The notes under the pieces were generated by a model. The model searched no databases. It had not been told where the DNA came from and was given only the letters and a program-made list of their open reading frames with translations. 33,382 nucleotides of DNA, from the IMG/VR virus record IMGVR_UViG_2874945390_000012; one strand, written 5' to 3'. Below, piece by piece: positions 240-1,071 of this stretch. The stretch's first letter is position 1; each line of letters begins with the position of its first letter. Both the position numbers and the translations under genes were made by a program. This stretch comes from a virus (lineage: Duplodnaviria > Heunggongvirae > Uroviricota > Caudoviricetes).

Positions 240-977
240 TCACTTCGGGTAAGGCTGAATCCTGAATAGCTTAGTATTTAGTCGCTTTCTTGCGCGCTTG
301 TTCAGGAACCTGATGTAACGATATTGATTAAATTTGTGTACCACGGCCCGCTCCTTATTCGCTCGTAAATATTCGCCGCGCTTCCCTCCACGATTAATCG
401 CATTCATCGTTATCTCGTGATACCACTCACCGTCCAGTTCGTAGAATGTGCTTTCATGGCTGCCAATAAAATCAAAATTTGACGCCTGATACACAACACC
501 TGCACGCCCGCAACGTTCGTCTGCAAAGGACTGAACCCACTCCACTGACGGATACAGTAACCTGATGGTTTTCAGCGCGTAGCTGATGGCCCGTGATTCA
601 GAGTTGCGGGGCATGTCGTCGTGTAGCCACATGCGGTTCAGTTCCATATAGCCCCGGTTATCCGTTTCAAGCACAACGCGACGCCCTGAGTTGGGGTTAA
701 GGGCATATCCCCACTGAAGAACACCAACCAGATCACGTCCACTGAATACGCCCAGATGCAACCAGGAGTTATTCACAAAACGGCGGGAATAATGCTTTGT
801 CTGAATGATTGTGCGGGCCAGCCAGCAGGATATGGTTTCAACGCGCAGCTCCCTTGAACCATAGCCGACAATCCGGCCTTCATACTCAATAACGCAGGGT
901 TTTGTCAGAATGCGTGATTTCTTCTCTTTTCCCACAATACAGCTCCGTGGGATGCTCCCGGGCACTCGATATGACAA
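240..977 (-). CDS. mom: Mom-like DNA modification protein (anti-restriction adenine modification)
   Basis: 245-aa ORF at the extreme right end, immediately downstream of and overlapping a Com-like zinc-finger gene, as in Mu com-mom. The start is non-AUG (TTG at 975-977 or GTG at 966-968); no in-frame ATG until ~codon 110. Confidence 0.75.
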
Positions 978-1071
978 TGTAACGTTTACAGCGAGGACAT
1001 TTGATTTCTATATGCTTAAAACCTCCTTTAAACAGCAATTTATTGCAATTTTTACAACGAACAGAGTCCAT
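886..1071 (-). CDS. com: Com-like zinc-finger translational activator of mom
   Basis: [62 protein letters not shown]4 zinc finger (CKNC...CPRC), ~61 aa, closely resembling Mu Com. SD GGGGAA lies upstream of the ATG at 1071; the longer ORF to 1131 is probably a 5' over-extension. Confidence 0.85.

Follow-up and report, generated by a model that had tools for sequence, protein, structure and literature searches.

The mom gene of a Mu-like Escherichia coli prophage very probably starts at a GUG codon 50 nt inside com, as in phage Mu

Introduction

The mom gene of phage Mu begins at a GUG codon, according to a published statement (PMC6483171) and a GenBank annotation. In the published work, translation of Mu mom is dependent on Com (PMC6483171, PMC3378877), and the 'Mom GUG start codon' is placed in the stem of the translation-inhibition hairpin (TIS), next to which a second hairpin contains the Com site (PMC6483171). 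The Com-binding hairpin of Mu is a 19-mer, GAAUGCCUGCGAGCAUCCC, which carries the motif CC-N2-3-GAG (PMC6483171). The Mu mom coding sequence in GenBank AF083977 encodes 231 aa. Its GTG start lies 50 nt short of the end of com, and the record lists an RBS 7 nt ahead of this codon.

Across the group, Mu-type mom genes are annotated inconsistently, with a product of 231 aa (from the GUG), a product of 241 aa (from an upstream ATG), or simply the longest open reading frame. In D108, SfMu and several E. coli genomes annotated by PGAP, the start of mom is an in-frame ATG located 30 nt further upstream than the GTG.

Here, we analyse the com-mom region of a 33,382-nt stretch of viral DNA (IMG/VR record IMGVR_UViG_2874945390_000012), which we refer to as the window. 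The arrangement of com and mom in the window is the well-known translational control module of phage Mu, and as such is already known biology. Common to Mu and the window are the gene order, the 50-nt overlap, the location of GGAG and GUG in a predicted CCCAC/GUGGG hairpin, and the position, architecture and CC-N3-GAG motif of the Com-binding hairpin. The comparison favours the GUG in the inhibitory hairpin as the start of mom. In practice, the result is of use only as a clearer rule by which to annotate the start of mom; the understanding of Com-Mom regulation is unchanged by it.

The com-mom locus of the prophage

The window contains a Mu-like prophage of E. coli that is inserted in the host gene dsbG, with the right end of the prophage at the start of the window. 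Positions 1 to ~113 (plus strand) correspond to the 5' part of dsbG, which is found with at least 95% identity in 5423 of 5426 E. coli genomes. At ~110-116, the end of the prophage interrupts dsbG, and near-identical prophage ends are located in vgr, fliH and alr of other strains, as expected of Mu-type transposition. Both com and mom are encoded on the minus strand, as are all genes in the first kilobases of the window. The region 240-1113 is 87-88% identical at the DNA level to Mu, SfMu and D108, and there is 100% identity over 401 nt to a prophage of E. coli VL40.

The com gene occupies positions 886..1071 on the minus strand (ATG 1071..1069, TGA 888..886), with the same boundaries as in a preliminary description of this DNA and in the PGAP annotation of the identical VL40 sequence. 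It encodes a zinc-ribbon translational activator of 61 aa, compared with 62 aa in Mu, from which it differs by several substitutions. The translation contains two CxxC pairs (residues 6-9 and 25-28) and matches Pfam family PF10122 (Zn_ribbon_Com; E=2.5e-7, 30.5 bits against a curated cut-off of 22.9). A sequence resembling a Shine-Dalgarno (SD) element, GGGGGA, is present at 1081..1076, with a predicted interaction of -8.4 kcal/mol with the anti-SD. A search of PDB sequences with Com yielded no match.

Upstream of com, the window and Mu differ. The gin invertase gene and the invertible G segment, the former being found at this place in Mu, D108 and SfMu, are absent between the tail-fibre genes and com (window 1072-2200), and a DUF4376 protein (1196..1822) is encoded directly upstream of com. 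The intervening DNA contains a perfect 11-nt inverted repeat with two GATC sites at 1146..1173 (strand not assigned), the arms of which, GACGATCGATA and TATCGATCGTC, are separated by a 6-nt spacer. The repeat aligns beside the GATC-rich region of Mu that is annotated as the late promoter, and its place matches that of the Dam/OxyR-controlled mom promoter region of Mu. By position, the repeat may have the function of this promoter control region.

The start codon of mom

The Mom reading frame is open from a TTG at 977..975 to the stop codon at 240, and the next in-frame stop upstream is a UAG at 1010..1008. With the TTG as codon 1, the first ATG in frame comes at codon 111, equivalent to Met97 of the 231-aa protein, and the frame is indeed devoid of ATG for ~110 codons, as the preliminary description had noted. 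That description had proposed a non-AUG start for mom at one of two codons inside com, a TTG at 975-977 or a GTG at 966-968. The TTG is in the Mom frame; positions 966-968 read CGA, and the in-frame GTG is located at 963-965. The proposal of a non-AUG start inside com stands, but neither of these two codons is preceded by an SD sequence, and a third non-AUG candidate further downstream, GTG 935..933, had been overlooked.

Homology and comparison with relatives point with high confidence to GUG 935..933 as the start of mom, 50 nt inside com, as in Mu. The coding sequence would thus span 240..935 on the minus strand and encode 231 aa, an assignment that is based on alignment with Mu, PGAP and the match to Pfam family PF25680. 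An SD sequence, GGAG, is located at 943..946 (minus strand), 7 nt upstream of the GTG and in the loop of the TIS hairpin, and corresponds by homology to the RBS of the Mu record AF083977. GTG 935 is the only one of the three in-frame non-AUG candidates with such a sequence: the predicted interaction with the anti-SD at the 3' end of 16S rRNA amounts to -5.8 kcal/mol for GTG 935, compared with +0.9 kcal/mol for TTG 977 and +1.0 kcal/mol for GTG 965. In a four-way alignment GTG and GGAG are invariant, and fall on window positions 935..933 and 946..943, respectively. Because the two elements align with the start and the RBS of Mu, the com-mom overlap has the same length, 50 nt, in both. PGAP also selected GTG 935 as the mom start on the identical VL40 sequence.

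The protein sequence is in agreement with this start. By its match to Pfam family PF25680 (E=1.8e-75), Mom belongs to a family of DNA adenine-modifying enzymes; the domain is matched in full from residue 29 of the 231 onwards, and the protein shares ~96% identity with the Mu group. Mom is near-identical to Mu Mom in PDB entry 8BV8 over residues 2-232 (E=8.5e-154), and the two match end to end from GTG 935. The crystallised Mu protein, which is the 231-aa form, starts at the codon homologous to GTG 935. Truncation of the first 10 residues of Mom has been reported to be well tolerated, with the protein still functional (PMC13219725). Since the truncated protein is reported to be functional and the 8BV8 sequence begins at this codon, an upstream extension of Mom is not needed.

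The preliminary description had placed the start ~90-105 nt inside com, and had judged the overlap to be longer than in Mu. TTG 977 would give an overlap of 92 nt and GTG 965 one of 80 nt, and the impression of a longer overlap derives from the extent of the open reading frame. In Mu, a TGA closes the Mom frame just upstream of the in-frame ATG at position -30 relative to the GTG. In the lineage of the window, this TGA has become CGA, and therefore the frame remains open for a further 12 nt, up to the TTG, and appears longer than in Mu; the start itself is likely unchanged.

To place the start codon in a broader context, we compared 73 loci of the Mu group, drawn from collections of phages, genomes, viral contigs and metagenomes. 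The GTG is kept in 70 of the 73 loci, and so is the GGAG (70 of 73). The three exceptions (L083-L085) are metagenome contigs with GTA and AGAG at these positions, in which the match to Mom is limited to residues 1-98; they are decayed copies that lost the start signals together with the remainder of mom. The preliminary description had also considered that the reading frame might be a sequencing artefact. We reject this, because the arrangement recurs across the Mu group, at 73 independent loci, and is present in 95 of 5426 complete E. coli genomes.

One locus, L054 (IMGVR_UViG_2713897198_000003), contains one additional A in the A-run that follows GTGGGAAAA, ~10 nt past the GTG, which shifts the frame. 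As a consequence of the shift, the overlapping TTG of aTTGtg is in the Mom frame, and the tail of Com is shorter and different. Either the locus is a natural +1 variant, with a start retained in the same hairpin, or it reflects a homopolymer sequencing error.

The Com-binding hairpin

By homology with Mu, the Com-binding hairpin of the window is located at 952..965 on the minus strand, and consists of a stem formed by GUGC (965..962) and GCAU (955..952) with a CCGGGA loop (961..956). The homologue of the Mu 19-mer reads GAGUGCCCGGGAGCAUCCC (967..949) and retains the motif in the form CC-CGG-GAG (CC-N3-GAG). The hairpin appears in the local MFE fold of the window. Compared with Mu, the loop differs (CCGGGA in the window, CUGCGA in Mu), and the first stem pair is G.U instead of A-U, as a result of which the in-frame ATG of Mu reads GTG (965..963) in the window.

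The stem is supported by covariation. In 22 distinct relatives, all four stem pairs covary with changes on both sides, and 96.6% of the cells are paired, in segments selected for their position and with a motif search demanding at least three of the four pairs, a choice that leans towards the structure. None of 500 shuffles reached the observed pairing or covariation score of the stem, and all slid registers collapsed. A group of ~30 viral contigs (L132 group) has a C.A mismatch at stem pair 2 (GCGC/GCAC), with a U-A pair in L148; an A-C pair in the Mu RNA has been discussed as a possible conformational switch (PMC6483171).

GTG 965..963 constitutes the first three positions of the 5' stem arm, where relatives read ATG, ACG, GCG, GAG, GCA or GGG. 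Judged from this variation, positions 965..963 behave as stem bases rather than as a conserved codon. Given the covariation of these bases, the most fitting interpretation of the upstream ATG or GTG is that it belongs to the Com-binding stem.

The predicted translation-inhibition hairpin

Directly 3' of the Com-binding hairpin, the sequence CCCAC-GGAGCUGUAUU-GUGGG (931..951, minus strand) is predicted to form the TIS hairpin, in which CCCAC (951..947) pairs with GUGGG (935..931), so that the GUG start codon is in the stem and the SD sequence in the loop. The TIS is predicted in the MFE folds of both the window and Mu, with a difference in loop sequence (CUGUAUU in the window, AAACAUU in Mu), and in 13 of 13 representatives with a GUG start, this codon is base-paired in the local MFE fold. 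The stem is nearly invariant among the relatives, which leaves no covariation to be counted.

Prediction of the RNA secondary structure, which the preliminary description had suggested as a check, thus recovers both hairpins in the local MFE fold. The two hairpins together (48 nt) fold with no better energy than dinucleotide shuffles (z = +0.15 in the window and -1.34 in Mu), and the same holds for a 196-nt region (z = +1.08). A search of positions 700-1300 against Rfam, with E up to 1, found no family match. Conservation, covariation and published probing speak for the hairpin structure; energy does not.

Alternative start codons

GTG 965..963 (minus strand) corresponds by homology to the ATG that is in frame in Mu, and a start at this position would yield a protein of 241 aa and an 80-nt overlap. 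The codon is in frame and a legal start, and the homologous ATG is the annotated start of mom in D108 and SfMu, and PGAP selects it in several genomes of E. coli that have an ATG at this place; among the 73 Mu-group loci, the codon at -30 is ATG in 65 and GTG in 8. We consider translation from this codon improbable. It lacks an SD sequence, is located in the stem of the hairpin that is bound by Com, and varies as a stem and not as a codon. In a locus from a Scandinavium MAG (L005; Mom 81% identical), which originates from a single-protein scan of genome contigs that gave 3 loci in all, an in-frame TAA separates the -30 ATG from the GUG. Because of this TAA, the GUG, with AAGGAG 7 nt upstream, is the only possible start in L005. 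In the L132 group (~78% identical) there is no start codon at the -30 position, and in most of its loci, namely the ones whose frame is closed by a stop at -96, no ATG, GTG or TTG other than the homologous GTG follows the stop. The 231-aa length of the crystallised form and the reported activity of Mom without its first 10 residues (PMC13219725) also argue against the 241-aa protein.

Even less probable is a start at TTG 977..975 (minus strand), the first start-type codon of the frame, which would give a protein of 245 aa and a 92-nt overlap. It is favoured as the start of the longest open reading frame, and the frame is open in the lineage of the window, but it also lacks an SD sequence. The codon at -42 is TTG in only 33 of the 73 Mu-group loci, and in 39 of the 73, Mu among them, the codon at -33 is a TGA stop that cuts the TTG position off from mom. 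The in-frame stop of L005 likewise lies downstream of this position. Finally, translation could begin at the first in-frame ATG, with the frame upstream of it untranslated; the first half of the Mom frame has no AUG besides that of Met97. This is hardly credible, given that the Pfam domain starts at residue 29 and is matched over its full length, that the region before Met97 is conserved as protein down to relatives with 42-52% identity, and that the sequence of Mu Mom in 8BV8 contains residues upstream of Met97. With GUG 935..933 as the start of mom, TTG 977 and GTG 965 are best explained as by-products: the Com-binding stem accounts for GTG 965, which forms its 5' arm, and TTG 977 is in frame only because the TGA became CGA in the lineage of the window.

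We also compared by eye the substitution patterns of com and mom upstream of the GUG between lineages. Both frames were altered, and the comparison did not discriminate between starts.

Proposed control of mom translation

The sequence elements needed for Mu-type control are all present in the window, and are either conserved or covarying. By analogy with Mu, com and mom would be co-transcribed as one minus-strand mRNA. In the free mRNA, the GUG would be paired in the CCCAC/GUGGG hairpin, with GGAG in the loop. Com, as a zinc ribbon of 61 aa, may then bind the adjoining 5' hairpin (GUGC-CCGGGA-GCAU) through the motif CC-N3-GAG, and binding would open or out-compete the inhibitory hairpin, so that ribosomes could load at mom. 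From the published work on Mu we infer, for the window, that Com binds its hairpin, that the inhibitory hairpin melts, and at which residue Mom begins. Com-dependent activation through an RNA structure, as suggested in the preliminary description, fits with the retention of both the Com-binding and the TIS hairpin. The further suggestion that a weak start codon adds stringency is plausible for the GUG of the window, but does not extend to the whole family, because AUG is the start codon in several relatives that share the hairpin.

The window differs from Mu in ways that might have consequences for control. Because the change from TGA to CGA opens the frame upstream, and the -30 ATG has become GTG, a minor, N-terminally extended isoform of Mom made from TTG 977 or GTG 965 is conceivable. 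Alternatively, the changed hairpin (G.U pair, CCGGGA loop) together with the diverged Com could represent a separate Com-RNA specificity class. We regard such a departure from Mu as very unlikely.

Related modules

Modules resembling that of the window occur outside the Mu group. In the Pseudomonas Mu-like phages JD024 and PAN70 and in other prophages, as in the window, a Com zinc ribbon overlaps the start of mom, and a 4-bp hairpin with a C...GA loop is located 15-25 nt upstream of the start. The codon at the homologous place is GUG in PAN70, L129 and L130. Unlike in the window, it is AUG in JD024, a Magnetospira MAG (L006), L139, L164 and L165, and UUG in L079. The N-termini that follow from these starts are similar across the relatives (MGKEKK, MGKQKK, MAQKLS, MAQKPS and MAKKP).

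The inhibitory pairing differs among the modules of the JD024/PAN70 type. In L139 (IMGVR_UViG_2773858062_000010), a Com-type hairpin within the 60 nt upstream of the mom ATG has the loop CUCCGA, which is perfectly complementary to the SD region UCGGAGA. This complementarity suggests that in the L139 variant the SD sequence is sequestered by the Com site itself.

Homologues of Mom (68-79% identical) are also found without com upstream. In three of these loci (L135, L138 and L155), mom starts with ATG and lies downstream of an intergenic region rich in GATC, and in Aeromonas phage pAEv1818 (L012) it follows the gene for antiterminator Q and has an annotated TTG start.
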